NCBI GenBank assembly: GCA_965206695.1
Contig: CBDBKM010000003.1
Location: forward strand, 95,825 to 159,824
Direction: 5' to 3'
DNA: 64,000 nt
Source: Chlamydiales bacterium
GTDB lineage: Bacteria; Chlamydiota; Chlamydiia; Chlamydiales; JAAZZY01
Position 1 is the stretch's first letter. Each line of letters opens with the position of its first letter. Both the position numbers and the translations under genes were made by a program. The notes below the pieces were generated by a model. It saw nothing but the letters and a program-made list of their open reading frames with translations, ran no database searches and was not told where the DNA came from. This document shows positions 2,876 through 35,103 of this stretch, piece by piece.

Positions 2876-2886
2876 GATTAACTATT

Positions 2887-5529
2887 TTATTTTTTTTTAA
2901 ATAGACGTTTAAAAAACCCATCTTTTTTGTCTTCTACGCCTCCGGATTGTATATTTGCAATTTTCGGTCGGATGCGACACTTGTCATATTCGTTATATTC
3001 TTTATTTATTTGTCGAAGGATCTTTTTATCAATGGGTAAGGGTTGCAGATCCCATATATTTTTGGCGTATGTTTCTATAGCGACATCAGCTGAAAAATTT
3101 CCGGATCCTGCTATATTGTGAATAGCATATTCTGCCCATTTCGAAGGATTTTGATATAATTCTTCTACCTTTTTTTGTGTTTCATAATAGGAGTTAAGAT
3201 CTTTTAAGACAAAGTAGCGATCGGGCACATGGCCATGTTCAGATTTTATTAGCTTTGAAGCACATTGGGTCAATACATGATGCTCTAGATCATTTGTGGC
3301 AAAAGTACCGTCATTCAAAGCATTAAGTGCTTTTCTTATTTTTTCATCGTTAATATATATGTCATTTGGACAATAGGAATTGTCCATTTTCATAGCATGA
3401 ATGTCATCGGCAGTGCAACCAAAGCGAAAAGGCCACCATTGATCGGTTATATCTTCACGCATTTCGATATTAGCTCCATCCTCCGTACCGATTGTTAAAG
3501 CACCGTTCATTGCTAATTTCATATTTCCTGTTCCGGATGCTTCCATCCCGGCTGTAGAAATCTGTTCTGATAAATCAGCGGCCGGGATAATAATTTCTGC
3601 TTTAGAGACATTGTAATTTTCAATGAATATAACATTTAATCGTCGGTTGACTTTTTCATCATTATTGATCTTTCTTGCTAAGCAATAGATCATCTGGATG
3701 ATATGTTTGGCTGTTTCATAACCGGGAGCTGCTTTACCGCCAAAAATGACAGTTCGACTCACTGATCGAGAATTGGGATCTAAAGTTAATTCTTGATATA
3801 GGATAATAAGATGCAATGCGTTTAATAGTTGACGTTTATATTCATGGATCCTTTTAATTTGCATATCAAAAATTGAGTTAGTATTCAAAATGGGGTGGCA
3901 TGAGTATAATGATCCGGTATGATCACGACAAAGGTTAGAGCGATTGATAAAATCTACTAATTTTTGTTTGTTTTGATTCTTAATATCTAAAAATTCTTGC
4001 CGGGAGGCTTCATCAGATGCAAAGTCTTCCAGTTTTCGAATATTTCTTAGATCCTTTATCCAATCATCCCCGATGCGTTTGGTAATAAATTCTCTTAAAA
4101 GAGGATTGCAATGCATTAACCATCTTCTTGGTGTTACGCCATTTGTAACGTTTAGAAATTTTTCCGGATACATCTCTGAAAAATCTTTGAAAACAGATTC
4201 CTTCAATAGTTTTGAATGCAATTTAGCCACGCCATTGACATGCATAGAACCAAAAATAGCTAAATGAGCCATTTTAATTTGTCCGCCTTCAATGAAGGAC
4301 ATGCGTCTTAACTTCTCTTCGTCATGAGGAAATTTTTTTCGAATAGCATCGCAAAAAGCTTGGTTCAATCGTTCAATAATCCGGTATTGCATTGGTAGTA
4401 AATGACGTAGGCGTTTTTCGTTCCACTCTTCCAAGGCTTCTTTTAAGATGGTATGATTGGTGTAATTCATACAATGCCGGGTGATATCTAAAGATTCTTT
4501 CCATTTGAAATTATAGTCTTGTGTAAGTGTTCTCATTAATTCAGCTACAATTAGAGCAGGGTGTGTATCATTAATTTGAATACGAACTTTATCAGGCAGA
4601 TTTTTTAAGCTTTGGTTGTTTATTAGATGGCGTCTTAAAATATCTTGTAGCGAGGCAGACACTAATAAAAATTCTTGCTTTAAGCGCATTCGTTTACCCA
4701 TGTCATGGTTATCATTGGGATACAATACATCGGTAAGGGTCATGTTTTCAGCTGCTTGATCCAATTGTCCTGCATTGAAACGCTGTAATTGAAAATTCCT
4801 TGGAGATTCTTTAGTGGACCATAATCTTAGGGTCACGACCGGAAAATCAGCGCCTTTGCTATAACCGACGATGGGTGTGTCAAAAGCAACTGCACGAACG
4901 GTTTCATAGTCATAAAGCTCTGAAATCTCTTCTCCTGCTTCATTTTGCTTTTGTATTATGCTGCCGTTAAATTTAATGTTAAAGGCGCGAAAGTCTCGCC
5001 TAAATTCCCAGGGGTTGGGTCTTAATAGCCAACCATCAGGTCTTTCAATTTGAATCCCATTCCACAATTCTTGTTCAAAAGTGCCATATTGATATCTTAG
5101 GCCATATCCAAATGCGGGCATATAAAGTGTAGCTAAGGAGTCTAAAAGGCAAGAGGCTAGGCGACCTAAGCCTCCATTTCCTAAACCGGGTTCTATTTCT
5201 TGTCTAAGAACCGCCCTGTAATTCCGGTGCATTTTCTTTGCGACCCTTTGAATTAAGCCATGCGCATTTAAATTAGTGATATTATTGCTGAGAATTCTAC
5301 CGGGAAGATATTCCATAGAAAGGTAATAGAGAATTCTTGTGTTGCAGGATTGATGAGTATGTAAAAGAGCGGTCCAGTTAATCATAATCTCTTCTCGAAG
5401 CGTCAAAGATAAGGCTTCATAGAACTCTTCATCGGAGATTTCGTATTCTAAGCGACCGAGCTTGGTAATTAAGTAATGTTTGATTTTATGAACGAGCATT
5501 TCTGCTTGCCAATCAAGATCGTCGTTCAT
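2887..5529 (-). CDS. glgP: Glycogen/alpha-glucan phosphorylase
   Basis: LGNGGLGRLASC, QINDTHP, KRIHEYKRQLLN and the PLP-site EASGTGNMK. Confidence 0.97.
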   Translation of the reverse strand: MNDDLDWQAEMLVHKIKHYLITKLGRLEYEISDEEFYEALSLTLREEIMINWTALLHTHQSCNTRILYYLSMEYLPGRILSNNITNLNAHGLIQRVAKKMHRNYRAVLRQEIEPGLGNGGLGRLASCLLDSLATLYMPAFGYGLRYQYGTFEQELWNGIQIERPDGWLLRPNPWEFRRDFRAFNIKFNGSIIQKQNEAGEEISELYDYETVRAVAFDTPIVGYSKGADFPVVTLRLWSTKESPRNFQLQRFNAGQLDQAAENMTLTDVLYPNDNHDMGKRMRLKQEFLLVSASLQDILRRHLINNQSLKNLPDKVRIQINDTHPALIVAELMRTLTQDYNFKWKESLDITRHCMNYTNHTILKEALEEWNEKRLRHLLPMQYRIIERLNQAFCDAIRKKFPHDEEKLRRMSFIEGGQIKMAHLAIFGSMHVNGVAKLHSKLLKESVFKDFSEMYPEKFLNVTNGVTPRRWLMHCNPLLREFITKRIGDDWIKDLRNIRKLEDFASDEASRQEFLDIKNQNKQKLVDFINRSNLCRDHTGSLYSCHPILNTNSIFDMQIKRIHEYKRQLLNALHLIILYQELTLDPNSRSVSRTVIFGGKAAPGYETAKHIIQMIYCLARKINNDEKVNRRLNVIFIENYNVSKAEIIIPAADLSEQISTAGMEASGTGNMKLAMNGALTIGTEDGANIEMREDITDQWWPFRFGCTADDIHAMKMDNSYCPNDIYINDEKIRKALNALNDGTFATNDLEHHVLTQCASKLIKSEHGHVPDRYFVLKDLNSYYETQKKVEELYQNPSKWAEYAIHNIAGSGNFSADVAIETYAKNIWDLQPLPIDKKILRQINKEYNEYDKCRIRPKIANIQSGGVEDKKDGFFKRLFKKK

Positions 5530-7471: not shown

Positions 7472-7606
7472 GAAGAGATGGATTCTGAATCGAAATTAGG
7501 AAGAATTTATCAAGAGGAAGAGATGGATTCTGAATCGAAATTAGGAAGAATTTATCAAGAGGAAGAGATGGATTCTGAATCGAAATTAGGAAGAATTTAT
7601 CAAGAG
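7472..7606. repeat. Perfect tandem repeat, 3 x 45 bp
   Basis: gaagagatggattctgaatcgaaattaggaagaatttatcaagag at 7472, 7517 and 7562. Confidence 0.97.
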
Positions 7607-12323: not shown

Positions 12324-12615
12324 TTGACAGCTCCCTAAAGGGAAGGGATTCCTAATTCAACGGTTACCGCCCCGGGAAAAAACTTGGTTTTCGCAATAAA
12401 AATTCTCAAAGGGAAACTTTTACGATTTTCAAGCAACCCACTCTACCCGGGCCTGACATAATCTCTAAAGACTCAATTAACCGACTGTCCCACGGTAGCT
12501 CTAAAAGATAGGAATCGTATACGAAATATGAGAATTAACACGAATACAACACAATACTTTAATCGCGGCGCTCTCATCCCAATGCTAAAGCAAAGGGTTG
12601 CCTCGCTTAATTGTC
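12324..12615 (-). mobile_element. IS200/IS605-derived miniature element (292 bp) with expanded omegaRNA-like region
   Basis: Minus strand begins gacaattaagcgag (IS605 left end, cf. 15101) and ends gaatcccttccctttagggagctgtcaa (right end, cf. 20572). Colinear with 26406-26703. Confidence 0.85.
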
Positions 12616-12619
12616 ATAG

Positions 12620-15005: not shown

Positions 15006-15148
15006 ACAATTCTCCTTAGTTTTTTATTTGATTTCAAAATCCGCTTTAGATAACTCTAATAGTATCTTTATAGTTTCTTAATATTATAAAGGCTATTTAT
15101 GACAATTAAACGAGAAAACCCGCCTTTTTAAGAGTGGGATGAAAGTGT

Positions 15149-15553
15149 CTATTTGTTTTTTTGATTCCGTATATACTTTCTGATTGTATATTCATTTAAT
15201 TTTCCAACACTATCAACATAATAAGACCGTGTCCACAGTGTGGGTAACCCGGATCTTAAGCTTGAAAATTCTTGCCTTAATATTCGGCGTGTATATCCCT
15301 TAAGTTGTCCTATGAAAAATTGTGGCGAATATATAGGCTTGGTATTTAAAAAAATATGTACGTGATCAGGCATAATATTCAGTTCGTGAATCTCTATATT
15401 TAGTTGTAGAGCTTTTAATTTTAATAATTCCTTTAAACGAACAACAATATCACCTTCAAGAACCTTTCTCCTATATTTAGGACACCAAATAACATGGTAA
15501 CTAAGGTTAAAAACTGCTGTTTTAGAGGTTTTCCGTCTTTCCGGATAGACAAT
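15149..15553 (-). CDS. tnpA: IS200-type HUH (Y1) transposase TnpA, no ATG start
   Basis: YHVIWCPKYRRKVL, MPDHVH, LWTRSYYV, IRKYI. The frame is open to ATT at 15553. Confidence 0.85.
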   Translation of the reverse strand: MVYPERRKTSKTAVFNLSYHVIWCPKYRRKVLEGDIVVRLKELLKLKALQLNIEIHELNIMPDHVHIFLNTKPIYSPQFFIGQLKGYTRRILRQEFSSLRSGLPTLWTRSYYVDSVGKLNEYTIRKYIRNQKNK

Positions 15554-16876
15554 CTATATATACCGGACATATAATGCAATACATGATGATCAAAAAAGCA
15601 TATAAATTTAGATTCTATCCAACGAAAAAACAAAAGGAGTTGCTTACAAAAAGCTTTGGATGTTCCGGAGTTGTATATAATCAAGCTTTAAATTTTAAGA
15701 TCAAGAAATATCAGGAATACAAAGAGAATGTAAGTTATTCTAAAACATCGGCATTCTTGACAAGTCTTAAGCAAAACAAAGAGTTTCTTTGGTTAAACGA
15801 AGTTTCTTCTGTTTGTCTGCAACAAAGTCTTAGAGATCTTGATAGAGCTTTTTTAAACTTTTTTAAAAAAAGGTCAAATTTCCCTCGCTTTAAAAACAAA
15901 CACAGTACGCAGGCAATACGATTAACTAAGTCAGCATTTAGTTGGGATGGGGTTAATCTTAAGATTGCAAAATCTAAAGACAGATTAAAAATACATTGGT
16001 CAAGGTGTTTTTTAGGTACACCAACAGGTATAACAATCACAAAAGACTCTTGTGACAGGTATTTTGTGAGCCTATTAGTAGAAGAAGAAGTGATCCCTTT
16101 TGAGAAGAGAAATAATTCTGTCGGTATAGATTTAGGATTAACGACATTCGCAACTCTTTCTACAGGGAAAAAGATTACGGCACCTAAACCTTTTAGATTT
16201 CATAAGAAAAGACTAAAAAGAAAACAACGTTCTCTTAGCAAAGCTAAAGTCAAAGGTAAAAACAGACTCAAAAAAAGAAGATCGGTGGCTTCGATACATT
16301 CGAAGATAAAAAATATAAGGCAGGACTTTCATCATAAACTTTCTACAAAGTTGGCTCGTGAAAACCAAACGATCACGATAGAAGGGTTAAATATTAATAA
16401 GATGTTAAAAAATAAAAAACTTTCCAAGCATATATCGGATGCAGGATGGAGCCGGTTTTTAACATTTTTAAAGTATATAGTATTTTAATTTTTATTTGAT
16501 AATATGTTATCCTTCTTTTTTTATACAAACAGTAAGGACAAAACAATGCCTAGAGCCTATTCAGTAAATCTTCGAGAGAAAGTATGACAACATATAGAAA
16601 AACATCATGATAAAAAAACAGCCGGCCATATTTTTCAAGTAGGTATCGCAACAATATATCGATGGATCTTGCAAAAAAAGCAAAAAGGACATTTAAAGCC
16701 AATCCGCAGAAAATATGCTTATAAGAAATTAGATGATGAGTTGTTATCTAAATATGTAGAAAAACATCCGGATTATTTTTTATCGGAAATTGCTGATTAT
16801 TTTTCAGTCACTCCGCAAACGATTTTTTATGCCCTTAAAAGATTAAAAATTACACGAAAAAAAAAACTACTCGCTA

Positions 16877-17970
16877 TACTCATCACGAATAAACCTCCGG
16901 ATATTTTGTATTCGTATAGTGTAAATTATTTTGTATGAATTCATTTTTAACACTATCAGAAGAAAAGCATCTCAGACAGCAACATAAACGAGAAAAGAAT
17001 GGTCGTATACGAGATCGTATCAAGGCTGTTCTATTGTCGAATAAAGGTTGGAGTAATACTCGTATTGCTGAAGCTGTGCTTTTAGACGATGAAACAGTGT
17101 CTCGTCACATTAAAGAATATCAAAATAAACAGCAATTGCATGTAGAAAGCGGTGGTTCAGTCAGTAAACTTCTTGCGCCACAGTCAGAAGAATTCATTAA
17201 ACATTTAACAACTCATACCTATGTCAAAGTAGAAGATATCTGTTCTTATGTTCTCGCGAAATATGGCATTGTTTATACGATTTCAGGGATGACTTCTTGG
17301 CTACACTCACATGGTTTTTCCTATAAAAAGCCTAAAGGTACACCGGCTAAGGCAAATTCTGATCAACAAAAAGCTTGGATGCAATTTTACACCAAGCTTA
17401 TGGCATCTCTGCCTAAAAATGAGCCTGTTGAATTTGCTGATGGTGTGCATCCAACTATGGCAACTAAAATTTCTTATGGTTGGATTCGACCGGGAACAAG
17501 TAAATTAATCGCAACAACAGCTTCTAGAACTCGAATGAATCTTATGGGGTCTATCAATTTAAACAGTATGAAGGTAACAATAGATGCTTATGAAACATTA
17601 AATAGCGGTACCATGGCAAAGCATTTTGCTTTGCTACGGTCAAAATACCCCTCAGCTCCAAATATCCATCTTATTTTAGATCAAGGCCCTTATAATACAA
17701 GTATTCAGACCAAACAAGAAGCAGAAAAACAAGGTATTATTCTCTATTATTTACCTTCTTACAGTCCTAACCTCAATCCCATTGAACGATTATGGAAAGT
17801 GATGAATGAATATTGTCGCAATAATCGGTTTTTTAATTCTGCTAAAGAATTTCGGAGATCGATTACCGGATTTTTTGAAAATACTTGGCCCTCTATTGCT
17901 CAATCAATGAGGACACGAATCAATGATCATTTTCAAGTCTTAGAATCGGCACTTTGATTCATAAGGGGTA
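16877..17970 (+). mobile_element. IS630 type B (1094 bp, single 340-aa transposase 16935-17957)
   Basis: DDE motifs FADGVHP, ILDQGPY, LPSYSPNLNPIERLW; TA duplication. Confidence 0.93.
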
Positions 17971-18015
17971 TATAAGGAAAGAGATGAAAAGAAACGGGAA
18001 GCTTTTATGAAAGAT

Positions 18016-19783
18016 CCGACATTCCTAGACCTCTAAACAAGTTTTTCTAATTAAGCCATACATCCTCATTGCAGTCTTTCCAAACAAAACAATAATCTTT
18101 TTCCGAAGACGGGTTAAATTTGTGATCATTTCTTTACAAATTCTCCGGGAAGTCTTCTGAAAAAAACGGATTATTCCGATACCTTCCATAATTTGGAAAA
18201 TCCATCTTAATGTTGGATTTTTGACTTCCTTTCCTAATTGGTTGGGTAATGTCTCTTCTGTTTCTATCAATTTTTGTCGAAGTTGATATTGTCCGATATT
18301 ATAAACCATTAAACACAATGTCATAACCATCATTAATGCTTCAATGCGTCGAGGGGTTTTTAAAAAAATAGAATCAACCATAAACCAAGGATCTTTTAAA
18401 AAGCGAAACCCTCCTTCAACCTTTTGCTGTTCTTTATATTCTTCTAACATCATCTCATCTTTATAATTTTCTCTATCGGTGTCATTCGCAGCTAAAATAA
18501 ACCGTCCTTTTCTATTCATCAGTTTATTAATTTCTTCTTCTTCCCTTTCAAAGCTAGCATGAATCTTGTATCCAACAACTTGTTTTTCCTCTCCTTGTTT
18601 AGGTTTGCCTAATTTACCATATTTTAGAATCGGCAATATCTCACTATTCATGGAATATAAATGATTTTTTTTAGTCAATCTGCCCCAAGCTTTTTTAGCA
18701 TCACTTTCGCATTTAAATTCCTCATTACCCAAATGCCAAAGTTGTTTCTTGAGCTTTTCTTCTGCCTTGGTCAATTTTTTTTCTAATGATTTTATCTCTC
18801 TCTGATAGGCTTGCTCTGAAAAAACCAAAAGCCATCTTTGTTTAATCCCTCCATAAAAAGAGGTGAAGCTGCATGTTTTATATCCTTTCTCCTGATCAAT
18901 CCAATCAATTTCTTCTTCCGGTTTTTCTACTAATCTTTTTGCTTCTCCTATTATCTCGGGAACTCGGGTGAGCCATTTATAATCATTATTTTTTAAGAGC
19001 TTTTCTTTTGTGTATAACGCTGAATCGGCAACCCACTTCAACTTTGTTTTTACATCAATCTGTTGTTGAAATTCACTGATTTTTTTGAGCGTCTCATGAA
19101 AACTTGCTTTATCAGAACTATTGCCGTCTAAGGCTTCCATCCATAGAGGCATAGAACTCGGACCATTGGTAACGAGAGAAAGTACAACTTGTTTCAAATC
19201 AGGTCTATGATCTTTAGAATAACCCTGCTTAATCTCAATCACTTGCGGATCATCTTTCACTTCATACGACCCATGAACGGAAAAGCTTGTTGTATCTAGA
19301 TGATGCGTTTTTTGTAGTAAATCATGGTCTAGGGCTATTCCAAAAGAAACTTCAGCAAATAATTTACTGCTCCCATATTTCGCAATATCATCCAAAGCAT
19401 GACCTAAAGTATAATCTGTGAGATCTTCTGCTCGAAGATCGTTGCCAAGTAAATTCTCTATCGATTTAGAAGCAAAAAATTGATGTGTTAGGTAGAGACG
19501 TCTATTAGTAAACCCTAATCCATTCAGAATCATTGCAATTACTGCCTGTCCCGCACTTACTTTTCTTTGTGGATGATTTTTTAATCCGGTATCAATCCTT
19601 TCCGCTACTTTTAGATCGCTGCAAAGTGCTGCAATTAATCCATGGTGATCCATGTTCACTGTTTGAATATTATCTCCTGCAACTTCCGGCATAACTTTTC
19701 TCCTTGTATCAAATAAAAAGTAACAGGATAGGCAATCTATAATTCTAATTCAAAAAAAATATCTTACGGTCTAGGAATGTCGG
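18016..19783 (-). mobile_element. IS1634-family element (1768 bp; transposase 18025-19692)
   Basis: 16-bp IR ccgacattcctagacc, 6-bp TSD AAAGAT, motifs HLDTTS, GYSKDHRPDLKQ, VADSALY, VEGGFRFLKDP. Confidence 0.95.
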
Positions 19784-20439
19784 AAAGATTTAAAAAATAT
19801 TCCCTTTGACAAGAGAATTTATCTCGATGAAACCGGGATTCATCAATTTTTATTTCGTGAGTCCGGAAGAAGCTTACGCGGCAAAAGAGTTTTTGGAGCG
19901 GTTTCAGGAAACCGCTTTATAAGGCAAAATATTATTTCAGCCCTATCTAAAGGGCAGTTTTTATCTCCAATGTGTTTTGAAGGTACTTGTAATACCGGGT
20001 TATTCAATATTTGGCTTAAGGAAGTTTTGACTCCTCAGCTTACACCCGGTAGTGTTCTTATTCTTGACAATGCCGGTTTTCACAAGTCAGCGGAAAGCAG
20101 GAAAACAGTAGAATCTGCCGGTTGTAAGCTTATGTTTCTTCCTCCCTATTCTCCGGACTTAAATCCTATAGAAAAATATTGGGCTAATATGAAAAATAAA
20201 GTTAGAGAGATATTACGAAAAGTTACGAATTTTAAATTCGCCATTGATCAAGCAATCTTATCAATATAAAATTAAATGACTATAAGTGTAAATGGTACGG
20301 AAGAAATATAGTGGAATTAGATCAATTTTTTGCCGGTTCAAAACTATGCTCTGCCTGCCGGTACCAAATAGAAATTTTAGATTTAAGTGTGAGAAGTTGG
20401 CAGTGTCCAAACTGCAAAGTAACACACGATAGAGATCTT

Positions 20440-20592
20440 AATGCATCTATTAATCTCGATACCGCAGGGCAGTCGGTAATTTAAGCCTTTGGAGATCATG
20501 TTAGACTAGCTTGTTTGTTAGCAGTGGTCGATGAATTAGGAATCCCTTCCCTTTAGGGTTGGGAGCTGTCAAGATATTCGTCAAGTTAAATA
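20440..20592 (+). ncRNA. Putative TnpB omegaRNA (scaffold overlaps tnpB 3' end; guide from the flank)
   Basis: Position at the tnpB 3' end and right end, and conservation in other copies. Boundaries are approximate. Confidence 0.65.
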
Positions 20593-20685: not shown

Positions 20686-22023
20686 ATGCGTCCAAAGAGC
20701 ATTAAAGAATTACGGACATTTTTAGGTATATCAAGTTTATCTGAAGCAATTATTCATGATTTTGCTATCGATAGTCGCCGGGTAAAAAAGGGTGATCTTT
20801 TTTTCGCTCTGAAGGGAGAAAAAGTCGATGGTCATAAATTTTTAAAAATGGTGAAAGCAAAGGGAGGTGTTGCAGCTGTTATTCATCATTCTTATCAAGG
20901 ACCTGATTTCGGTCTTATATTATTAAAGACAAATGATGTGTTGGAAACTCTACAAGTTTTTGCTAAAACAGTTCTGATTAATAGAAAAACAAAGGTTATC
21001 GCTATAACCGGATCATTAGGCAAGACAACGACGAAAGATTTTATCTATACATTGTTGAAAGAAAAATATCGTGTGGCTAAAACGCCCGGTAATTACAACT
21101 CTCAAATTACGTTACCTTTAAGTATTTTAAAAAGTGCCGGGGACGAGGATTTTTTGATCCTTGAGTTAGGTATTAGCAAGCCTAATGAAATGGCTAAACT
21201 AATGGAAGTAGTTACGCCTTATATAGCTGTTATGACAAGGTTAGCTCATGTTCATATTGCGAATTTTTTAGATTTTAGGCATTTGGCAAATGAAAAAGGG
21301 CTTATATTTTCCAATAACAACACGATAACAGGTTTTATTAATAGAGATGCTCCATTTTTTGAAGAAATGTTGGCAATAGGTAGCTGCTCCAAAATAAGTT
21401 ATTCAGTTGCAAATTCTACCGGCCCTTATTATTTAAAATCCATTTCTGAACATGAGATCGAAATTTACCGTTATAATTGTTTAAAACTTAAAAAAAAGAT
21501 TTCTATTCCCGGTTTGCATAACCATCAAAATTTGTTAGCGGCTATTGCTGTAGCTATTGAACTCAAACTTGCTTTTTCAGAAATTGATAGAGGGATTGAT
21601 ATGCTTGAGTTACCGGAAAGTCGTATGCAGTTTATCCGTAAGAAAGGGGCGGTATTTATTTTGGATGCTTATAATGCGAATGCGGATTCAATGATAGCAG
21701 CCTTAAATAGCATGCCTGACCCTAAGTTAAAAGGACGAAAAATAGCGATATTATCAGATATGGTTGAGCAAGGGAAGTATTTAGAAGACAACCATTCTCT
21801 TGTTGCTCTGCATGCTCTTACTTGTGTTGATCATCTTTTCTTAATTGGTGAAGGTTGCAAGGTTATGAAAGATATATGGGTTCAAGCAGGCAGAAAAGTT
21901 GATTTTTTTGATGCATTTAATGATTTAAAAAAACGAATAAAACAAGTTATCCTCCCGGAAGATGTAATATTAATAAAAGGTTCTAGGCTTAAAGCATTAG
22001 AGCGTCTACTGGAAGTATTTTGA
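20686..22023 (+). CDS. murF: UDP-MurNAc-tripeptide--D-Ala-D-Ala ligase
   Basis: DSRR, ITGSLGKTTTKD, DAYNAN, IKGSR. Confidence 0.95.
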   Translation: MRPKSIKELRTFLGISSLSEAIIHDFAIDSRRVKKGDLFFALKGEKVDGHKFLKMVKAKGGVAAVIHHSYQGPDFGLILLKTNDVLETLQVFAKTVLINRKTKVIAITGSLGKTTTKDFIYTLLKEKYRVAKTPGNYNSQITLPLSILKSAGDEDFLILELGISKPNEMAKLMEVVTPYIAVMTRLAHVHIANFLDFRHLANEKGLIFSNNNTITGFINRDAPFFEEMLAIGSCSKISYSVANSTGPYYLKSISEHEIEIYRYNCLKLKKKISIPGLHNHQNLLAAIAVAIELKLAFSEIDRGIDMLELPESRMQFIRKKGAVFILDAYNANADSMIAALNSMPDPKLKGRKIAILSDMVEQGKYLEDNHSLVALHALTCVDHLFLIGEGCKVMKDIWVQAGRKVDFFDAFNDLKKRIKQVILPEDVILIKGSRLKALERLLEVF

Positions 22024-22024
22024 A

Positions 22025-23182
22025 ATGATTTTAATTATCCTGGATTTTTTACGCGAAGGGTTGGGTCTAAAAGTTCCCTTAGCATTTGAATATTATTCAA
22101 CTCGAATGACTTTAGCTGCCTTAACATCTCTTTTATGCACCATATTATTTGGGCCAAGATTTATAAAAAAATTATACGAGTTTAAAATAGGCCAGACTAT
22201 CCGAATGGAAGAATGTCCTCTTTTAGGAAAACTACATGAGAAGAAAAAAGATACACCAACAATGGGTGGTCTTCTCATTCTTTTCTCGATGTTGGTTTCT
22301 CTATTCTTATGGATGGACTGGTTCAGTCCATTTACGATTATTCTTTTGATCACGACAGTTTTTTTAGGTTTTTTAGGGGCATATGATGATTTCTTAAAAC
22401 TCAAACATCATAATACAAAAGGATTGTCGGGCAAAAAAAAAATGTTGGTACAGGTCATTTTTGCTCTGGGGATAGCTTTATATCTCCTCTATTCTCATCT
22501 CAATATAGAAATTAAATCCTTAGGTGTATCTCATTTGAGTATGATGAATTACATGTCTCGTTTGTATATTCCTTTTCTTAAAGAGCCCCTTTTCTTTTTT
22601 AAGGGCCCCTTTATCATTCTAATGATAGTATTTATTATTATTGTCATCTGCGGTTCTAGTAACGCAGTCAATTTAACAGATGGCTTAGATGGTCTGGCTG
22701 CAGGCAATGCGGTTTTGGTAGCCGGTACTTTAGCTATTGTTGCATTTTTTTCGAACAATGTTGATCTGGCTCGTTATCTTAATATTCTATATGTGGAAGG
22801 AAGCGGCGAGATAGCAATTTACCTTTGTGCTCTAGCAGGTGCTTGTTTAGGCTTTTTGTGGTACAACGGACATCCGGCACAGGTTTTTATGGGAGATACC
22901 GGTTCTTTATCAATAGGTGGTATTATCGGTGTCAGTAGTGTGTTGATCAAACGTGAAGTCTTATTAGCTTTGATTGGCGGTATATTTGTGGCTGAAGCCC
23001 TTTCTGTTATTTTACAGGTGGGTAGTTACAAACTGCGTAATAAAAAAAGGATCTTCCTCTGCTCTCCTCTTCATCATCATTTTGAATATAAAGGATGGCC
23101 TGAAACGAAGGTGGTATTACGTTTTTGGATTGTAGGTTTATTTTTAGCGGTAATTGGATTAGCTTCACTTAAATTACAATAA
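22025..23182 (+). CDS. mraY: Phospho-MurNAc-pentapeptide transferase
   Basis: TPTMGG, NAVNLTDGLDGLA, FMGDTGS, PLHHHFE. Confidence 0.97.
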   Translation: MILIILDFLREGLGLKVPLAFEYYSTRMTLAALTSLLCTILFGPRFIKKLYEFKIGQTIRMEECPLLGKLHEKKKDTPTMGGLLILFSMLVSLFLWMDWFSPFTIILLITTVFLGFLGAYDDFLKLKHHNTKGLSGKKKMLVQVIFALGIALYLLYSHLNIEIKSLGVSHLSMMNYMSRLYIPFLKEPLFFFKGPFIILMIVFIIIVICGSSNAVNLTDGLDGLAAGNAVLVAGTLAIVAFFSNNVDLARYLNILYVEGSGEIAIYLCALAGACLGFLWYNGHPAQVFMGDTGSLSIGGIIGVSSVLIKREVLLALIGGIFVAEALSVILQVGSYKLRNKKRIFLCSPLHHHFEYKGWPETKVVLRFWIVGLFLAVIGLASLKLQ

Positions 23183-24498
23183 TGAATAGCTATACAGATA
23201 AAAAGGTACTGGTAGTTGGTCTCGGATCAAGTGGGAGAGCTGCGATTTCTTTATTACTAAGCCAAAAAGCCAAAGTATTTGCCTATGATGATAGGATCAT
23301 TTCATTGGAACAGAAACTTCAGTTTGAAGATCCGTTCTTTAAAGGTCTTAATTGGCACAATATCGAGTCATCTATCTTACCGTATGACATGATTGTCATG
23401 TCTCCCGGTATTTCAAAAGTACATCCCATCTATAAACAAGCTTTAAAGATTCATAAAGAAGTGATTGGAGAGGTTGAACTAGCGGCTCAGATGATTGTTA
23501 ATCCTTGCATCGGTATTACCGGAACAAATGGAAAAACAACCGTTACGAGTCTAGTCGCTCACATTCTAAATCAATCTAATAGAAAGGCTTTGGCAGTAGG
23601 AAACATAGGTGTGCCTCTTTGTGATTTGGTTCAAGAACCCTCAGATACGATTTTTATTATTGAATTGAGTTCGTATCAGTTAGAAACATTAAAAACACCT
23701 TTTTTAGATCATGCGATGATTTTAAATATAACTCTCGATCACCTTGATCGTTATCCTTCTTTTGAAGCTTATGTTGAGGCAAAATGTAATATTTATAAAG
23801 GTTTAAAATCTAAAGGAAGCTTATATCTGGATGAGGATTTTTTTGATGGTTATGCCCATAGCATTCCTTATCCTTATTTGAAAAGATTTGGATATCAAAA
23901 GGATTTGATACAGTTAGATATTTTAAATTGCAATAAAGAAAAAGTTGAATACATTTTACCTGTAAGTTATAGAAATAAAAATATGATTGAAAAAGATAAT
24001 ATTTTATCTGCTTTTGTAATATGTTTTGAATTGGGATTGACAGAAGAAGAATGTGTGCAAGGCTTAAAGAGTTTTAAACGACCGGCGCATCGTCTTGAAT
24101 GGGTTAGGGAATTGAATGGGGTTCATTACTATAACGATAGTAAGGGGACCAATATTGCGAGTGTTTCTAAAGCTGTGCAAGCTTTTGATAACCCGACTAT
24201 TTTAATCGCAGGGGGTGTTGATAAGGGATTAGATTTTTTACCATGGGGTAGTTATTTTAGAGATAAAGTTAAATATTTATGCGTCATTGGTGAAGCCGGT
24301 GATAGAATAAAAAATGAACTTTCGCCTTATGTAAAAGGAAAAAAATTTGATACACTAGCTTCGGCTTTGCACTTTGCTAAAGAAACTGCTATAACCGGAG
24401 ATGTGATATTGTTATCTCCCGGTTGTTCTAGTTTTGATATGTTTAAAAATTATGAACACAGAGGAGAAGTGTTTAAACGGTTAGTGGAGTCATTATAA
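23182..24498 (+). CDS. murD: UDP-MurNAc-L-Ala--D-Glu ligase
   Basis: ITGTNGKTT, ELSSYQL, NDSKGTN, LSPGCSSFD. Confidence 0.96.
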   Translation: MNSYTDKKVLVVGLGSSGRAAISLLLSQKAKVFAYDDRIISLEQKLQFEDPFFKGLNWHNIESSILPYDMIVMSPGISKVHPIYKQALKIHKEVIGEVELAAQMIVNPCIGITGTNGKTTVTSLVAHILNQSNRKALAVGNIGVPLCDLVQEPSDTIFIIELSSYQLETLKTPFLDHAMILNITLDHLDRYPSFEAYVEAKCNIYKGLKSKGSLYLDEDFFDGYAHSIPYPYLKRFGYQKDLIQLDILNCNKEKVEYILPVSYRNKNMIEKDNILSAFVICFELGLTEEECVQGLKSFKRPAHRLEWVRELNGVHYYNDSKGTNIASVSKAVQAFDNPTILIAGGVDKGLDFLPWGSYFRDKVKYLCVIGEAGDRIKNELSPYVKGKKFDTLASALHFAKETAITGDVILLSPGCSSFDMFKNYEHRGEVFKRLVESL

Positions 24499-24549
24499 AG
24501 AAGTAAAATGAGAGATATTATTTCTTTTCAGTCAAAAGGGGTGTTTTAA

Positions 24550-25233
24550 ATGAGTCGCAGGGATACAATTTTAATTGCAGTACTAGTCAATGCAGGGTTA
24601 TTGATTATTTTATTCGCTACAGCAATCAATACCAATGATAAAAAAAATGTCATTAAAGTTGAGAAAGTAGCGCCAAAAACGGAAGTGAAGAGAACGATAA
24701 CTGCCGCTAGTCAAGAACAGGCAAAGCCTTATTATAGGCCACAACTAAGTGCGCCTATCAAAGAAACACCAACTTTTACATACAAACCACCGGCTAAAGT
24801 GGAAGCGCCTGTACCTAGACCTATCGCTGTAAAACATGAAGCCAAGCCGGTTGTTAGATATGAAACACCGGTTGAATCCAAGAAGCTTAATTTCGTGGAA
24901 GTGACAGTAAAAAGTGGGGATACTCTCGATCGTTTAGCCCGAATAAACGGAACATCTGTCAAAAGAATCATGACTGTGAATAATTTATCGATTACACGTC
25001 TGCAAGTTGGTCAGGTTCTTCGTATCCCGTTTGAAGCTGATGGAGATTCTGAGAATCGCAATGAGGAACGTAGTAAGTTATTTAAAAAATATTATACTGT
25101 AAAAAGCGGGGATACCTTATGGGATATTGCTGTTTCTAATAATATGAGTCTTGATAAATTATATGAACTCAATCATCTTAATCATGATAGTGCACGTAAG
25201 TTACAGCCCGGGGATTCTTTAAGAATCCAATAA
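24550..25233 (+). CDS. Membrane-anchored protein with two LysM domains (chlamydial NlpD-like)
   Basis: N-terminal MSRRDTILIAVLVNAGLL; VKSGDTL twice. Confidence 0.9.
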   Translation: MSRRDTILIAVLVNAGLLIILFATAINTNDKKNVIKVEKVAPKTEVKRTITAASQEQAKPYYRPQLSAPIKETPTFTYKPPAKVEAPVPRPIAVKHEAKPVVRYETPVESKKLNFVEVTVKSGDTLDRLARINGTSVKRIMTVNNLSITRLQVGQVLRIPFEADGDSENRNEERSKLFKKYYTVKSGDTLWDIAVSNNMSLDKLYELNHLNHDSARKLQPGDSLRIQ

Positions 25234-25276
25234 AGTGATTTTATACTATTTAAAGAGCATTTGAACATCCTATTCC

Positions 25277-26599
25277 ATGCAACGATTAGTTTTTTTTAAA
25301 CGAAGGTCTTTTAACTATTCTTCGATTCAACTGCATTGTGCCGCATTGATTATTAGTATCGCTTTAATTTTCGTTTTAGGTCTTACCATGGTATTTAATA
25401 CCTCTTCTGCAGAGGTATTGGATTATGATATCAGTGGAGATACGCACCAAGCTCTTTTGAAACAAGGGCTTTATGCTTTTTTAGGTCTTTTAATTAGCTT
25501 GATTCTTTGGTTTATAGGATATCAAGAGATATTGAAACTAAGCTTTCCTATTTTAATTGCTTTAACTTTTTGTCTTATATTGGTTTTTCTACCGGGGATT
25601 GGTTCAGAGGTTAATGGGGCGCATCGATGGATTTTCTTGGGCAAATATTCTATCCAGCCTTCAGAATTTGTCAAATTTTCACTTCCGTTATTCTATATTT
25701 ATTCCGTTATTCTAGGAGGAGTAAAGCCCAAATCTTTTTTTAAAATTTTAGGGTGTATCATTGTTCCTTTATTTCTTATTCTTATCGAACCGGCTAATGG
25801 TACGACAGCGATTATTATAATGACCTTGATCATGTTATTTATTTTAACAAAAGTGGATTTCAAATTATGGCTTTTCCCTATTATCATCATCCTTATGTTA
25901 GGAGGAATTGCCGCGTATAATATGCCTCATGTTTCTGCAAGGTTAACATCTTTTGCCAATCCCGAAATGGATATTAGAGGGAAAGGGCATCAGCCCTTTC
26001 AAGCTAAAATCGCAGCGGGCTCCGGAGGTCTTACGGGAAAAGGTCTGGGGCAAAGTATGCAAAAGCTTCATTACCTTCCTGAAGCTCAAAATGATTATAT
26101 CGCAGCTATTTTTGCAGAAGAATTTGGATTCATCGGTATTTTTTTTTTAATTGTCCTGTATATGATTATGATCTATGCAGGATTTTATATAGCAATTCAT
26201 GCTAGGACTACTCAAGGATATTATATGGCAAGTACTATAGTTTTTTTAATTGGGATTCAGGCTTTTTTAAATTTGGCTGTTGTTTCCGGCCTTTTACCCA
26301 GTACAGGTTTAAACCTTCCCTTTTTTTCACAAGGAGGATCTTCTCTTATAGCAAACTTTATGGGATTGACACTATTGATTAACATTGCTCAAGATACAAA
26401 AGACTTTGACAGCTCCCAACTCTCAAGGGAAGGGATTCCTCATTCAACAACCACTGTCCGGGGAACAAAGCCGGGTTTTCGCAATACAAATTCCCAAAGG
26501 GGAACTTTCACGGTCTTTAATCAACCCATGCTCCCCGGGTCTGACATGATCTCCAAAGGCTTAACTTACCGACTGCCCCACGGTAGATCTAAAAGATAG
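25277..26599 (+). CDS. ftsW: SEDS peptidoglycan polymerase FtsW with a mobile-element-derived 64-aa tail
   Basis: GAHRW, QPSEF, LPEAQNDYI, LPFFSQGGSS. Residues 377-440 are read from the miniature element. Confidence 0.93.
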   Translation: MQRLVFFKRRSFNYSSIQLHCAALIISIALIFVLGLTMVFNTSSAEVLDYDISGDTHQALLKQGLYAFLGLLISLILWFIGYQEILKLSFPILIALTFCLILVFLPGIGSEVNGAHRWIFLGKYSIQPSEFVKFSLPLFYIYSVILGGVKPKSFFKILGCIIVPLFLILIEPANGTTAIIIMTLIMLFILTKVDFKLWLFPIIIILMLGGIAAYNMPHVSARLTSFANPEMDIRGKGHQPFQAKIAAGSGGLTGKGLGQSMQKLHYLPEAQNDYIAAIFAEEFGFIGIFFLIVLYMIMIYAGFYIAIHARTTQGYYMASTIVFLIGIQAFLNLAVVSGLLPSTGLNLPFFSQGGSSLIANFMGLTLLINIAQDTKDFDSSQLSREGIPHSTTTVRGTKPGFRNTNSQRGTFTVFNQPMLPGSDMISKGLTYRLPHGRSKR

Positions 26600-26703
26600 G
26601 GATAGTATACAAGATATGAGAATTAACAAGAATACGAAATAACGCTTTAATCGAGACGCTCTCATCCCAATGCTAAAGCAAAGGGTTGTTTCGCTTAACT
26701 GTC
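26406..26703 (-). mobile_element. IS200/IS605-derived miniature element (298 bp) with expanded omegaRNA-like region
   Basis: On the minus strand: TTAT then gacagttaagcga (left end), ending in gggagctgtcaa. No TSD. Excision restores the ftsW/murG ATGA overlap. Confidence 0.9.
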
Positions 26704-26722
26704 ATAAAAGAAAAACAGTACG

Positions 26723-27835
26723 ATGATTGGTAAAAGAATATTAATAACAACAGGAGGCACAGGTGGTCATATTTTCCCGGCTCACGCCCTTGCTGTCAGT
26801 ATTAAAAAAAAATGTCCTGAATGCTCTATTCTTTTTGTCGGGGGCAAATTAGCTTCCAATCCCTTTTTCAATAAGAGGGGTTTTTCTGTTAAGGAAATTT
26901 CTTGCGCTACCTTATCCCTTTCTCGGCCACTACAGTTATTGAAAGGCATATTTCATATTATTAAAGGTTTTTTTCAATCTAGGGGAATTATCAAATCATT
27001 CAAACCTGATTTTATCATTGGCTTTGGCAGTTTTTATACTTTTCCGCTTCTTTTGTGTGCTGTTTTTAGAAAAATTCCTTTTGTATTGCATGAACAAAAT
27101 GTTTTGCCGGGTCAAGTTAATTGCCTATTTTCCCGTTATTCAGAACTGACAACTGTTAACTTCTCTCTTTCACGATCCTATTTTATTACGAAGGTTAAAC
27201 CGGTTCAAATGCCTCTTAGAGACTCATTTAGAAATCTTGAACTAACAAAACCAATGGCAAAAAAACAATTAGGATTAGATATTAATTATCCTACCTTACT
27301 GGTTTTTGGAGGTTCGCAAGGAGCTGTTTCTATTAATCGTTGTTTTTTAAAAGCGATTAAAAAAATCGTAGCATCTTTTCAACACTTTCAAGTTATCCAT
27401 CTCATTGGCCGGGTAGAGGACTTGTCTATTGTGCAACAATTATATCAAGAGCTACCTATTAAATCCTATATCTCTAGATTTGAAGAAGATATGGCGTCGA
27501 TCTTTTTAGCCTCGGATTTAACAATCGCTAGAGCCGGAGCTCTTAGTATCGAAGAGCACATTGCAATAGGAGTTCCTGCTATACTGATTCCGTATCCCTA
27601 TTCTAAGGATAACCATCAAGAATATAATGCGGATTTTTATATTAAAAATGCCAAAGGCGCAGTCAAAATTCTTCAAAAGGATTTAACTGAAGAAATGCTC
27701 TCAAAACTTGTGTTAGACTTATTAATGCGTTATCCTGATAAGTTAAATGAAATGAGACAAGGCATTTTAGCCTATAAAAAGCATGAAAATAAGCAAGAAC
27801 TTGTAGATCTGGTATTGGATTTAATCGGAGTATAA
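26723..27835 (+). CDS. murG: GlcNAc transferase MurG
   Basis: GGTGGHIFP, HEQN, FGGSQGA, HQEYNA. Confidence 0.96.
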   Translation: MIGKRILITTGGTGGHIFPAHALAVSIKKKCPECSILFVGGKLASNPFFNKRGFSVKEISCATLSLSRPLQLLKGIFHIIKGFFQSRGIIKSFKPDFIIGFGSFYTFPLLLCAVFRKIPFVLHEQNVLPGQVNCLFSRYSELTTVNFSLSRSYFITKVKPVQMPLRDSFRNLELTKPMAKKQLGLDINYPTLLVFGGSQGAVSINRCFLKAIKKIVASFQHFQVIHLIGRVEDLSIVQQLYQELPIKSYISRFEEDMASIFLASDLTIARAGALSIEEHIAIGVPAILIPYPYSKDNHQEYNADFYIKNAKGAVKILQKDLTEEMLSKLVLDLLMRYPDKLNEMRQGILAYKKHENKQELVDLVLDLIGV

Positions 27836-27837
27836 AT

Positions 27838-30276
27838 ATGAAAAAGAAATATCATATGATCGGTATTGGTGGTATTGGGATGAGCGGACTTGCGCGAATT
27901 GCTTTAAAACAAGGCCATGAGGTATCGGGAAGTGATATAGCAAAGAAAGACAATCTTAATGTTCTAATAGATCAGGGAGCTTTGATATCTAACGAACAGG
28001 TTAAAGAGAATATCAATCAAGAAATGAGCATTGTCTATTCAAGTGCTGTAAAAGAAGATAACCCTGAATATCAGCAAGCTAAAAAATTAGGATGCGAATT
28101 ACTTCATCGTTCTGATTTACTTGATTTATTTACTCGGAATAAGAAAACCCTCACGGTTACCGGCACTCATGGGAAAACCACAACGAGCGCTCTTCTAGCA
28201 TCTGTTTTTCTAGATGCCGGATATGATCCGGGTTATGCTGTGGGGGGTATTTTAAAAAATGAGGATAATAATGGTTCAATAGCTACAAGCGATTATTTTA
28301 TTATAGAAGCTGATGAAAGCGATGGTACACATGTCAAATATCGCTCTTTTGCAGCGATCATGACGAATTTGGAAGCGGAGCATCTAGATCACTACGGTGC
28401 CTTAGAAGCGTTAGAACAAAGCTTTCACCAATTCATTAATAATATTGAATCAGAAGATCATTTTTTTTGGTGTGGCGACTGCAAAGGTTTGCGATCTTTA
28501 GATTTAAAGAAAGGTATCAACTATGGCATGGATACACACAATGAGCTGATGGCAACAAACTTTAAACAAATAGGATGGAAAAGTTATTTTGACGCACGTT
28601 TTGAAGGCAAAATTTATAAACAAATTGAAGTGTCGTTAGTAGGGAAGCATAATGTTTTGAATGCACTTGCTGTGTTTGGTCTTTCTTTAAAATTAGGTTT
28701 AGACGAGAGCGATATTCGCAAAGGACTTGCATCCTTTAAAGGCGTATTAAGGCGTTTGGATATAGTCGATGAGGTTAATAGTATTTTAATCATAGATGAT
28801 TATGCTCATCACCCTACTGAAATTGAAGTGATGTTACATTCTTTAAAAGATGCCGTTGGTGAGAGAAGGTTAGTGGCTGTCTATCAGCCTCATCGATATA
28901 CAAGAACTCAAAATTGTATAGATTTATTTAAAAATGTATTTGATTATGCTGACGAGCTGATTGTTACCGATATATATTCTGCAGGAGAGAGGCCTAACGG
29001 CGTCACTCATCAGGATATTTTAGATAGGTTAAATGAAAGTTCTTCTCTATCGAACCGTCATGTTCCACGAAATATTCTTTTAGATTTTTTAGGTGATTTT
29101 CTTCGTCCCCACGATGTTGTTGTGACAATTGGAGCAGGAGATATCACAACGGTAAGTAGAAACTTATCTATGGATTTGAAAAAAAAAAGTTCTAAAATAC
29201 GAATAGGCCTCATTGCCGGTGGTCGCTCTCAAGAACATGAAGTGAGCCTATCGACTGTTAATTTTTTTTCCGGTGGGCTTGACCCTAATCTCTATGAGGT
29301 AACAAAATTCGGTATTACCCACCTGGGGATGTGGGTTATGGGTGACAATATTTTTGATGCTAATAAAATAGTCTCTGATCAAAAAAAATCCAATCTTTGT
29401 CCTGAAATATGGCAGGCACTAGAAGCCTGCGATTGTTTTATTCCCGTATTGCACGGGCCTTATGGTGAAGATGGAATGCTTCAAGGTTTTTTAGAAACCT
29501 TAGGAAAGGCTTTTGTAGCGTGTAATCGCAATGCTTCTGCTCTTGCCATGAACAAAGCATGGACTAAAAAAATTCTTCAGCATCATGGGATATTAACGAC
29601 AAAGTTTTTAGATTTTTCCGAATTTCAATGGCAGGAAGAGAAGGAGAGGGTATTATCTAAGATTAAAAATACTTTATCATTACCTCTTTATGTCAAACCC
29701 GTTCATCTAGGATCTAGTATCGGAGTTACTAAGGTGAGCCATGCAGAAGAGCTTTCATCTGTTATAAAACAAGTCTTACAATTAGATACGCATTTTATGG
29801 TTGAAGAGGAAGTGATAGCCAGAGAAATAGAAGTCTCTATCGTAGGCGATCAAATTCTTGATATTGCCAACCCGGGAGAAGTTGGGATAGACTCTTGCTC
29901 GTATTCTTATGAAGCTAAATATGGCTTAAGCCCTATCAAAAAGAAAGTACAAGCAGACCTAAGTGAAGATGTAGTGATTAAAGTAAAAGATTTCGCCAAG
30001 AAGGTATACCGTATAACAGATTGTTCGGTATTAGCAAGAGTTGACCTTTTTATCGATTCAAAAAATAGAATCTTTTTAAATGAGATTAATCCTATGCCCG
30101 GCTGTGGCCCGAACAGTTTATATCATCGTATGTTATTACAATCAGGTTTTACTCCTTATTCCTTATTGAATCGATTAGTTATCGCAGGCTTAGCTCATTT
30201 TAGAAGATTAGAAAGAAAAAATCACCGGAGTTTAAAAAAAATAGGGAAAGAGGTAGTACCTCATGCATTTAAATAA
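27838..30276 (+). CDS. murC-ddl: Bifunctional MurC-Ddl fusion
   Basis: GIGGIGMS, GTHGKTTT, DDYAHHPTE, then GGRSQEHEVS, LHGPYGEDG, NEINPMPG. Confidence 0.96.
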   Translation: MKKKYHMIGIGGIGMSGLARIALKQGHEVSGSDIAKKDNLNVLIDQGALISNEQVKENINQEMSIVYSSAVKEDNPEYQQAKKLGCELLHRSDLLDLFTRNKKTLTVTGTHGKTTTSALLASVFLDAGYDPGYAVGGILKNEDNNGSIATSDYFIIEADESDGTHVKYRSFAAIMTNLEAEHLDHYGALEALEQSFHQFINNIESEDHFFWCGDCKGLRSLDLKKGINYGMDTHNELMATNFKQIGWKSYFDARFEGKIYKQIEVSLVGKHNVLNALAVFGLSLKLGLDESDIRKGLASFKGVLRRLDIVDEVNSILIIDDYAHHPTEIEVMLHSLKDAVGERRLVAVYQPHRYTRTQNCIDLFKNVFDYADELIVTDIYSAGERPNGVTHQDILDRLNESSSLSNRHVPRNILLDFLGDFLRPHDVVVTIGAGDITTVSRNLSMDLKKKSSKIRIGLIAGGRSQEHEVSLSTVNFFSGGLDPNLYEVTKFGITHLGMWVMGDNIFDANKIVSDQKKSNLCPEIWQALEACDCFIPVLHGPYGEDGMLQGFLETLGKAFVACNRNASALAMNKAWTKKILQHHGILTTKFLDFSEFQWQEEKERVLSKIKNTLSLPLYVKPVHLGSSIGVTKVSHAEELSSVIKQVLQLDTHFMVEEEVIAREIEVSIVGDQILDIANPGEVGIDSCSYSYEAKYGLSPIKKKVQADLSEDVVIKVKDFAKKVYRITDCSVLARVDLFIDSKNRIFLNEINPMPGCGPNSLYHRMLLQSGFTPYSLLNRLVIAGLAHFRRLERKNHRSLKKIGKEVVPHAFK

Positions 30277-35029: not shown

Positions 35030-35103
35030 ATATCCAAAATCCAAAAACAAATAAACGCTTTCATTTCAATGCTAAAGCAAAGGGTTTTCTCGCTTATATT
35101 GTC
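35030..35103 (-). mobile_element. Isolated IS605-family left end overlapping the ribH stop codon
   Basis: caatgctaaagcaaagggtt..cgctt..tgtc matches the left ends at 12615 and 26703; TTAT adjacent on the minus strand. Confidence 0.8.

Follow-up and report, generated by a model that had tools for sequence, protein, structure and literature searches.

Protein-less derivatives of IS200/IS605 transposons have been described in two settings that bear on the locus analyzed here. The PATEs of G. stearothermophilus have no protein gene, share their ends with resident insertion sequence (IS) elements and carry an omegaRNA for which a TnpB encoded elsewhere would have to act in trans, as set out in the available excerpts of Meers et al. 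2023 (PMC10055086). In H. pylori, a family of miniIS605 elements carries the small RNA (sRNA) HPnc0580 (Rfam RF02269), one of the sRNAs from Sharma et al. 2010 that a 2021 review counts as uncharacterised, in its available part (PMC8322730). Here we describe two elements of this type in a stretch of 64,000 nucleotides (nt) from a Chlamydiales bacterium (assembly GCA_965206695.1, contig CBDBKM010000003.1, positions 95,825 to 159,824), hereafter the window. The elements, which we call minis, keep left and right ends like those of the resident autonomous elements, a TTAT target and a complete TnpB-type omegaRNA scaffold ending at the TCAA cleavage site, and the short apical hairpin of one stem of this scaffold is replaced by an arm of 81-82 nt. 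The arm is a real conserved RNA domain: it covaries in a set of 32 sequences drawn from many phyla, and every context sampled places it in gene-less elements only. Use of such an RNA in trans has already been published as an idea for PATEs and is not new as presented; the present analysis adds a candidate dedicated promoter and the conserved arm, neither of which is described as a PATE-specific feature in the excerpts of PMC10055086.

Both elements lie on the minus strand, one at 26406-26703 (298 nt; the 26k copy) and one at 12324-12615 (292 nt; the 12k copy). A first-pass annotation, made from the letters of the window alone, had described them as colinear and non-coding, and this was borne out: a repeat search of the window aligned 12374-12618 with 26462-26706 at 84% identity over 245 nt, and no transposase or nuclease gene lies inside either element, the sole long frame being the tail of ftsW that enters from outside. 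Their reading as non-autonomous IS605 derivatives that retain the omegaRNA scaffold also held, on the evidence of their ends, their TCAA and the remnant of a lost tnpB. The 5′ scaffold half still contains the final codons and stop of that gene (ACC GTG GGG CAG TCG GTA AGT TAA, against ACC GCA GGG CAG TCG GTA ATT TAA at the corresponding end of an intact element). TTAT stands 5′ of 28 of the 31 mini-type left ends in the genome and also of all three left ends of the autonomous element IS-A that a strict pattern retrieved, and the left end of the 26k copy is up to 95% identical over 43 nt to a left end at C3:164685 that lies upstream of a tnpB homologue. Intact mini copies in the genome terminate in TCAA. 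The 26k copy looks intact; the 12k copy is probably decaying, with TATACG in place of TATACT, a weakened arm and a 5-nt deletion within its right-end hairpin. The parts of both copies are listed in Table 1.

The host genome (2.46 Mb in 13 contigs) is rich in IS605-group elements. IS-A consists of a divergent tnpA and a tnpB of 367 amino acids whose Pfam domains are intact (OrfB_IS605, Cas12f1-like TNB and helix-turn-helix) and which matches the ISDra2 TnpB structures with E = 1e-64. A tblastn search with this TnpB returned 83 matched stretches in the genome, ~20 of them full-length at 98-100% identity and many diverged, and the Y1 transposase domain (PF01797) gave 51 genome matches, many with open frames. 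The window's own IS-A tnpB is broken by an IS630-family element (~16476-20288), itself broken by an IS4/DUF4277 element (18016-19784); identical copies of both nested elements recur in the window.

Compared with the two tnpB-type right ends of the window, the minis are ~91% identical over the 47 nt of the 5′ scaffold and ~90% identical over the 51 nt of the 3′ scaffold. Between these halves, the 26k copy has 82 nt and the 12k copy 81 nt where the tnpB-linked copies have the 15-nt TAGCTTGTTTGTTAG, so that the alignment upholds the earlier description of an 82-nt insert against a 15-nt loop, with a matching insert in the diverged copy. Genome-wide, 89 copies of the 5′ scaffold were found. A loop of 12-16 nt follows in 66 of them (with TAGCTTGTTTGTTAG as the loop in 26 of those), seven have 55-83 nt before a recognisable 3′ scaffold, and 15 have no 3′ scaffold paired with them by BLAST, six of these being long forms with diverged ends. 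The arm alone, used as a BLAST query, hit 15 genome loci: seven full-length minis, four minis that bear deletions or an insertion or have lost their 3′ end, and four cut on their 5′ side by other IS elements. Wherever upstream parts survive, the left end is found ~118 nt ahead of the scaffold. No tnpB lies upstream of any of the 15, and the long form is thus not the native form of an autonomous element of this genome, a finding that the first-pass annotation had named as one that would refute its reading. One copy, C11:402k, had been considered as tnpB-linked and was rejected, since IS630-type genes and no tnpB lie upstream of it.

The spacer between left end and scaffold has ~24 copies in the genome and these, together with the 15 arm copies, show that the two window elements are no chance pattern. 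No BLAST match of the spacer/promoter segment adjoins any tnpB in this genome, and an origin of the minis by simple internal deletion of a resident element is therefore not supported. Minis that share the spacer and have a short loop exist as well (for example, C3:82544-82764). Further variants include a mini with a 73-nt insertion in its 5′ scaffold (C6:7908-8263), one with the spacer fused to the 3′ scaffold (C5:49387-49565) and one whose arm is mostly lost (C13:87833-88017). A solo stretch in the window, 35055-35096, is 88% identical to the mini-type left end and lies beside the riboflavin operon, at the ribH end.

The position of the arm can be read against the omegaRNA of ISDra2 (PDB 8H1J, 8BF8/8EX9/8EXA), whose TnpB is a close homologue of the resident one. 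In the 113-nt short-form scaffold, the stem predicted to carry the hairpin or arm lies at about -79 to -73 and -51 to -44 from the 3′ end. This matches the position of stem 3a of ISDra2, in which -77 to -71 pairs with -48 to -42; stem 3b (-70 to -49) is unresolved in the structure, and its deletion raises editing activity, according to the available part of PMC10097598. By position, then, the arm would be an expanded stem 3b. The two differ in that stem 3b of ISDra2 is 22 nt long, flexible and dispensable, whereas the minis have 81-82 nt of conserved sequence with covarying helices. The transposon-adjacent motif (TAM) also differs, being TTGAT in ISDra2 and apparently TTAT here.

Nine copies of this genome and one from another genome were used to build a covariance model, R1. 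It matched at least 17 of 150 genomes of the same order, with 17 candidates scored per genome, so that these counts are a floor; a short-form scaffold with the loop TAGCTTGTTTGTTAG, as in tnpB-linked copies, scores 89 bits on it. Long forms were present in five of the R1-positive genomes, and all of them were minis where upstream DNA was visible, two being cut by contig ends. Five further genomes, chosen by way of the arm-motif loci described below, gave 4, 10, 26, 3, and 6 R1 matches; all 23 loci examined in them were minis, and all five contain TnpB and TnpA genes. In one Endozoicomonas genome, the right end of an autonomous element has a 3′ scaffold nearly identical in sequence to that of the local minis, together with a different arm, of ~50 nt.

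An exact search for the arm motif CATGRGTTG...CGTARAAG...AACCAAGC found 53 loci in one-genome-per-species reference contigs and 38 metagenome loci, one of the latter a chance match. The hosts include Chlamydiota (Waddliaceae among them), Dependentiae/Babeliales, Treponema, Pseudobdellovibrionaceae, Psychromonas, Endozoicomonas, Halorhodospira, Vreelandella, Desulfobacteraceae, and others. Upstream sequence of 230 nt or more was available for 74 of the 91 motif loci, and these 74 make up 44 groups below 90% identity. By eye, almost all of these loci follow one order: target, left-end hairpin, promoter-like spacer, small hairpin, scaffold, and ...GTCAA. No tnpB lies upstream of the arm in any of the 74. 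A tblastn search of the motif loci with the IS-A TnpB gave four matches, none on the same strand and adjoining the RNA, and a Pfam search of the upstream open reading frames (ORFs) at 20 genome and five metagenome loci found no TnpB, these ORFs being unrelated flanking genes or without a match. A perfect upstream hairpin was present in 20 of the 74 loci by a crude test, which was set aside, left-end hairpins being imperfect. The small 5′ hairpin varies between genomes (ACCT/AGGT, GTCT/AGAC, and ATC/GAT, by eye). Conservation over the arm is 72%, compared with 63% and 52% for the flanks, the first figure being inflated by retrieval through the arm motif.

When a mini of the Pseudobdellovibrionaceae/Psychromonas type was compared by BLAST with plasmids, it led to H. 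pylori plasmid pUM157, which has a copy at 2425-2690. This copy has a TTTAA target, a left-end hairpin and the scaffold with its long arm; TGGTATAAT stands 7 nt ahead of the RNA start, and the copy scores 36.4 bits on R1 (E = 2.8e-8). Like the window minis, the H. pylori miniIS605 is gene-less; its ends are of the IS605 type, its -10 box is extended, and the parts of its scaffold come in the same order. Its arm is homologous to the window arm (CCUGUAGGGA...UCCCUACGGG, UUGG/CCAA, and the apical hairpin). The targets differ, TTAT in this genome and TTTAA at the pUM157 copy. The scaffolds outside the arm differ in their affinities as well: the one in this genome is very similar to the resident tnpB-linked omegaRNA, which is not so for the H. 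pylori full-length IS605 examined. The Helicobacter comparison was made on plasmid records, 17 of which contain mini copies or fragments. The full-length IS605 on a plasmid of H. pylori strain 7C (2601-4480) was matched neither by R1, run with filters off, nor by RF02269, each at E up to 1, which makes the arm mini-specific once more in the one full-length copy examined in this way, and a second full-length H. pylori IS605 record gave no R1 match. In the strain 7C element, the tnpB frame spans the whole scaffold into the right-end hairpin. Full-length H. pylori IS605 and the mini share ~40 nt of left end by BLAST, and their right-end hairpins are alike by eye.

The Rfam model links the window to HPnc0580 directly. 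RF02269 matched 26502-26598 with 30.6 bits (E = 0.0025 for 411 nt searched), its position 1 aligning 6 nt after TATACT; the three best genome copies scored 29.4-30.6 bits. Among relatives, the Pseudobdellovibrionaceae minis scored 50.7 bits, one Psychromonas copy 39.4 bits and the H. pylori miniIS605 120.2 bits. The window copies are thus homologous to HPnc0580 without being formal members of the family by the Rfam cut-off. On this comparison, HPnc0580 would be the 5′ part of an omegaRNA-like RNA. We did not find this proposal in print in the literature searched, nor any link of HPnc0580 to TnpB in the searchable literature, nor a description of the arm as a covarying cross-phylum domain limited to gene-less elements.

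The arm folds as a basal helix (CCGGGGAGCA/UGUUCCCCGG), a middle helix, CGUGA/UUGCG and an apical helix (AAGUUCCC/GGGAAUUU). Three nested stems had been proposed for the insert in the first-pass annotation, and they coincide with the unconstrained minimum free energy (MFE) fold both of the whole scaffold and of the arm alone. Relative to dinucleotide shuffles, the arm had a z score of -3.7 in the 26k copy and -1.3 in the 12k copy, with a mean of -2.4 over nine copies of this genome. Folded alone and without constraint, the arm took the nested shape in other taxa as well, 19 of the 21 sequences giving z < -2; the anchors had truncated two of these 21. With 32 sequences aligned to R1, 82.6% of the cells were paired as against 73.8% after shuffling, and the covariation score was 0.302 against 0.172, a value reached by none of 500 shuffles; slid controls gave 0.05-0.09, and all measures exceeded 500 of 500 shuffles. 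This shuffle control ignores the relatedness of the sequences. Double-sided changes occurred in 29 of the 52 pairs: in all six of the arm-carrying stem, in three of seven in the basal helix of the arm and in four of 12 in the apical helix. The UUGG/CCAA helix is invariant and so uninformative on covariation. Within this genome, 84.5% of the cells were paired compared with 83.3% after shuffling. Conserved unpaired motifs of the arm are CAUGRGUUG, CGUAAAAG and AAAACCAAGC. A U-run follows the apical hairpin in many taxa.

Upstream of the scaffold, a promoter-like element is conserved in position across the mini family. In 21 of 44 representatives, compared with one of 44 in a control window, the pattern TGnTAnnnT occurs 70-110 nt ahead of the arm motif, and several other representatives have TTGACA or TTGACC 16-17 nt from TAAACT or TATACT. 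In the window, the boxes TATACT (26609-26604) and TATACG (12521-12516) were found just as the first-pass annotation had described them.

Taken together, we consider it likely, with a probability of about 0.6, that both loci are a protein-less IS200/IS605 derivative of the PATE/miniIS605 type whose guide RNA is used in trans by the resident TnpB. The RNA would be made from the mini's own promoter, the -10 box lying 5-7 nt before the HPnc0580-equivalent start. It would read through TCAA into the flank, which would thereby become the guide, and it would be loaded in trans onto the TnpB of resident IS605 copies, with ~20 near-identical intact tnpB genes as the source. Once TnpA, which would supply mobility in trans, had excised the mini, the TnpB-RNA complex could cut the empty site (TTAT plus flank), and the mini would be restored by recombination. 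Because stem 3b is solvent-exposed and dispensable in ISDra2, the arm should not block TnpB binding. The arm may serve to stabilize or fold an RNA that stands alone, to compete for TnpB or to contact a second partner.

Several observations weigh against this reading. The MFE of the whole scaffold is unremarkable (z = -0.3 and -0.15). The covariation score within this genome was 0.174 against 0.159 after shuffling and was reached by 40 of 500 shuffles, which is not significant, and an alignment fitted by a covariance model leans toward R1's own structure. RNAalifold, run on a structure-blind MAFFT alignment, pairs the first strand of the arm with the 5′ strand of the apical hairpin (strand 2); that alternative pairing also has double changes, and the MAFFT alignment sets the sequences in different registers at the basal helix. 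With alignments that included partial copies, RNAalifold recovered the apical hairpin only. The cross-phylum loci were retrieved by a motif derived from the arm, so that arm conservation is inflated and diverged tnpB-linked forms may be missed. On the side of the RNA, the window copy falls short of the RF02269 gathering score of 37 bits, and the Rfam model is 105 nt long and ends inside the arm, so that the annotation does not show an RNA reaching the guide. In this genome, the box reads TTG-TATACT, with the TG abutting the hexamer instead of lying one base away; a consensus scan for sigma-70 promoters and terminators did not call it and found no -35 and no terminator; and a listing of sequencing runs for 20700-30200 of the window gave one DNA record and no RNA record. 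Lastly, the minis may be old and idle in this genome, where many copies are partial. Two points of the first-pass annotation can be set beside these results. Covariation of the insert, which it had named as a check, is present across the 32 sequences (no shuffle in 500 reaching the score) and not significant within the genome alone, whose copies are too similar to decide. Self-promotion is favored by the conserved position of the box and disfavored by the negative consensus scan and by the TATACG of the 12k copy, which has no final T.

Beyond the trans-acting guide RNA, a broader proposal is possible, which we put forward tentatively and would not call probable. In it, the HPnc0580-type arm is a dedicated functional RNA module of cross-phylum, protein-less "hyperparasite" guide-RNA genes; with its help, a free-standing omegaRNA would persist and, in competition with the guides encoded with tnpB, acquire TnpB or a second partner in trans. 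The cassette of promoter, 5′ hairpin, scaffold and stem-3b arm would be conserved from Chlamydiota to Treponema, Endozoicomonas, and Helicobacter, with termini and sometimes scaffold flanks that match the IS605 of each host. The four G-rich or C-rich strands of the arm covary as a set, strand 1 pairing either with strand 4, as in the nested fold, or with strand 2, and could form a switch or a co-transcriptional intermediate.

It seems unlikely to us that the minis are inert relics, that is, decaying transposon debris in this genome with an arm kept by descent alone. The minis are 13-18% diverged from each other, in comparison with ~99% identity among IS-A copies, at least eight of the 15 arm copies have been truncated, interrupted or shortened by an internal deletion, and both the state of the 12k copy (TATACG and a weakened arm) and the nonsignificant covariation within the genome point the same way. 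Seven copies, however, are full length with both ends, the 26k arm folds well (z = -3.7), and across phyla the arm and promoter have been kept with compensatory changes, which decay would not be expected to produce.

Distinctly less probable is that some autonomous IS605 lineage outside the sample has the arm as the native form of its omegaRNA, the minis being plain internal-deletion derivatives of that lineage. The stop-proximal tnpB codons of the minis fit such a descent, and a motif search that demanded exact matches could have passed over the parent. Neither the 15 copies in this genome nor the 74 arm loci whose upstream sequence spans 230 nt or more are linked to tnpB, however; in H. pylori, two full-length IS605 elements have no R1 match, the one tested has no RF02269 match either, and the sequence shared with the mini by BLAST is limited to the ~40 nt of left end.

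An RNA that acts without TnpB, either as a regulatory or antisense sRNA reading into flanking genes or through an arm that recruits a different protein, strikes us as very unlikely. The H. pylori mini has a scaffold unlike that of the full-length IS605 examined, so its pairing with that TnpB is not obvious; the conserved unpaired motifs of the arm suggest a specific contact; and the window RNA would run antisense into the 3′ end of ftsW. Set against these points, minis and tnpB-linked copies of this genome are ~90% identical in the scaffold beyond the arm, all five other genomes checked carry TnpB, and the insertion sites differ among copies, so there is no common antisense target. Of the other partners proposed in the first-pass annotation, a TldR was not hinted at by anything in the loci, though no search aimed at it was made.

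On what is established for IS608, IS200/IS605 elements move as single strands, and the sense strand of the RNA is the strand that bears the left- and right-end hairpins. The arm could on that ground be a DNA-level structure on the transposed top strand that aids TnpA in excising and inserting short elements, G-T pairs being equally tolerated, but we regard this as highly improbable given that a promoter is conserved directly upstream, that the homologue is an annotated sRNA and that the arm is embedded in an RNA scaffold, ~50 nt away from the site of cleavage.

Table 1. Positions in the window of the two minis, their parts and the tnpB-linked right ends used for comparison.
Feature	Coordinates	Strand	Remarks or basis
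TTAT target site, presumed TAM (26k copy)	26704-26707	minus	directly 5′ of left end
Left end, starting GACAGTTAAGCG, first base G 26703	26650-26703	minus	imperfect subterminal hairpin
Spacer of ~70 nt including TATACT	between left end and small hairpin	minus	26k copy
-10-like box TATACT, TTG just before it	26604-26609	minus	kept in most genome copies
Small 5′ hairpin ATCT-TTT-AGAT	26587-26597	minus	HPnc0580 model position 1 aligns at 26598
5′ half of omegaRNA scaffold, 47 nt	26539-26585	minus	~91% identical to tnpB-linked scaffold
82-nt arm, long irregular hairpin	26457-26538	minus	folding and covariation
3′ half of scaffold, 51 nt, with right-end hairpin; TCAA at 26409-26406	26406-26456	minus	90% identical to tnpB-linked right ends
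Flank, would-be guide AGUCUUUUGUAUCUUGAGCA	26386-26405	minus	3′ end of ftsW, antisense; by position only, on the analogy of TnpB omegaRNA
Second copy (12k)	12324-12615	minus	CTAT target; TATACG 12516-12521; 81-nt arm 12370-12450; TCAA 12324-12327
IS-A left part: left end, tnpA ~15161-15514 (minus), N-terminal part of tnpB 15574-16488	15097-16488	plus	
IS-A 3′ part of tnpB with short-form omegaRNA/right end	20289-20572	plus	scaffold 20460-20572; 15-nt hairpin instead of arm
Second short-form right end, loop TAACCTTTTTGTTAG	50138-50299	plus	86% identical to IS-A; aligned part 50184-50299

The 26k copy is inserted in a cluster of cell-wall genes, eight codons ahead of the inferred native stop of ftsW (junction 26405/26704). 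The ftsW frame (25277-26599) now extends 65 codons into the mini, and 298 nt now lie between ftsW and murG (26723-27835); without the element, the ftsW frame would reach a TGA that overlaps the murG ATG as ATGA. Nearby, 27838-30276 is a single ORF of 812 amino acids that fuses MurC-type Mur ligase domains with D-Ala-D-Ala ligase domains, a fusion typical of chlamydiae. Elsewhere in the window, a 187-nt direct repeat (43240-43426 and 57023-57209, 98% identical) brackets ~13.8 kb that contain a toxin-antitoxin pair, a type I restriction S subunit, several IS elements, a protein with SET and NUMOD3 domains and an integrase (55889-56968) beside a tRNA (57165-57237), so that the region 43240-57209 looks like an integrated island. 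The SET-domain/NUMOD3 gene (50393-51829) contains three diverged repeats of 114-134 nt (51262-51638), and 7472-7606 consists of three perfect repeats of a 45-nt unit.

If the proposed mechanism is true, the minis would be natural, self-promoted genes for trans-acting TnpB guide RNAs and would offer a simple system for studying how an omegaRNA is produced and loaded without processing from a tnpB mRNA. For HPnc0580, listed as uncharacterised in the 2021 review, the comparison provides a concrete hypothesis. The arm also marks a site at which an omegaRNA tolerates insertion and could in that respect interest genome-editing engineers. An expansion of 80 nt on a stem that is dispensable in ISDra2, found only in gene-less elements, suggests a specific adaptation of a parasite's parasite.

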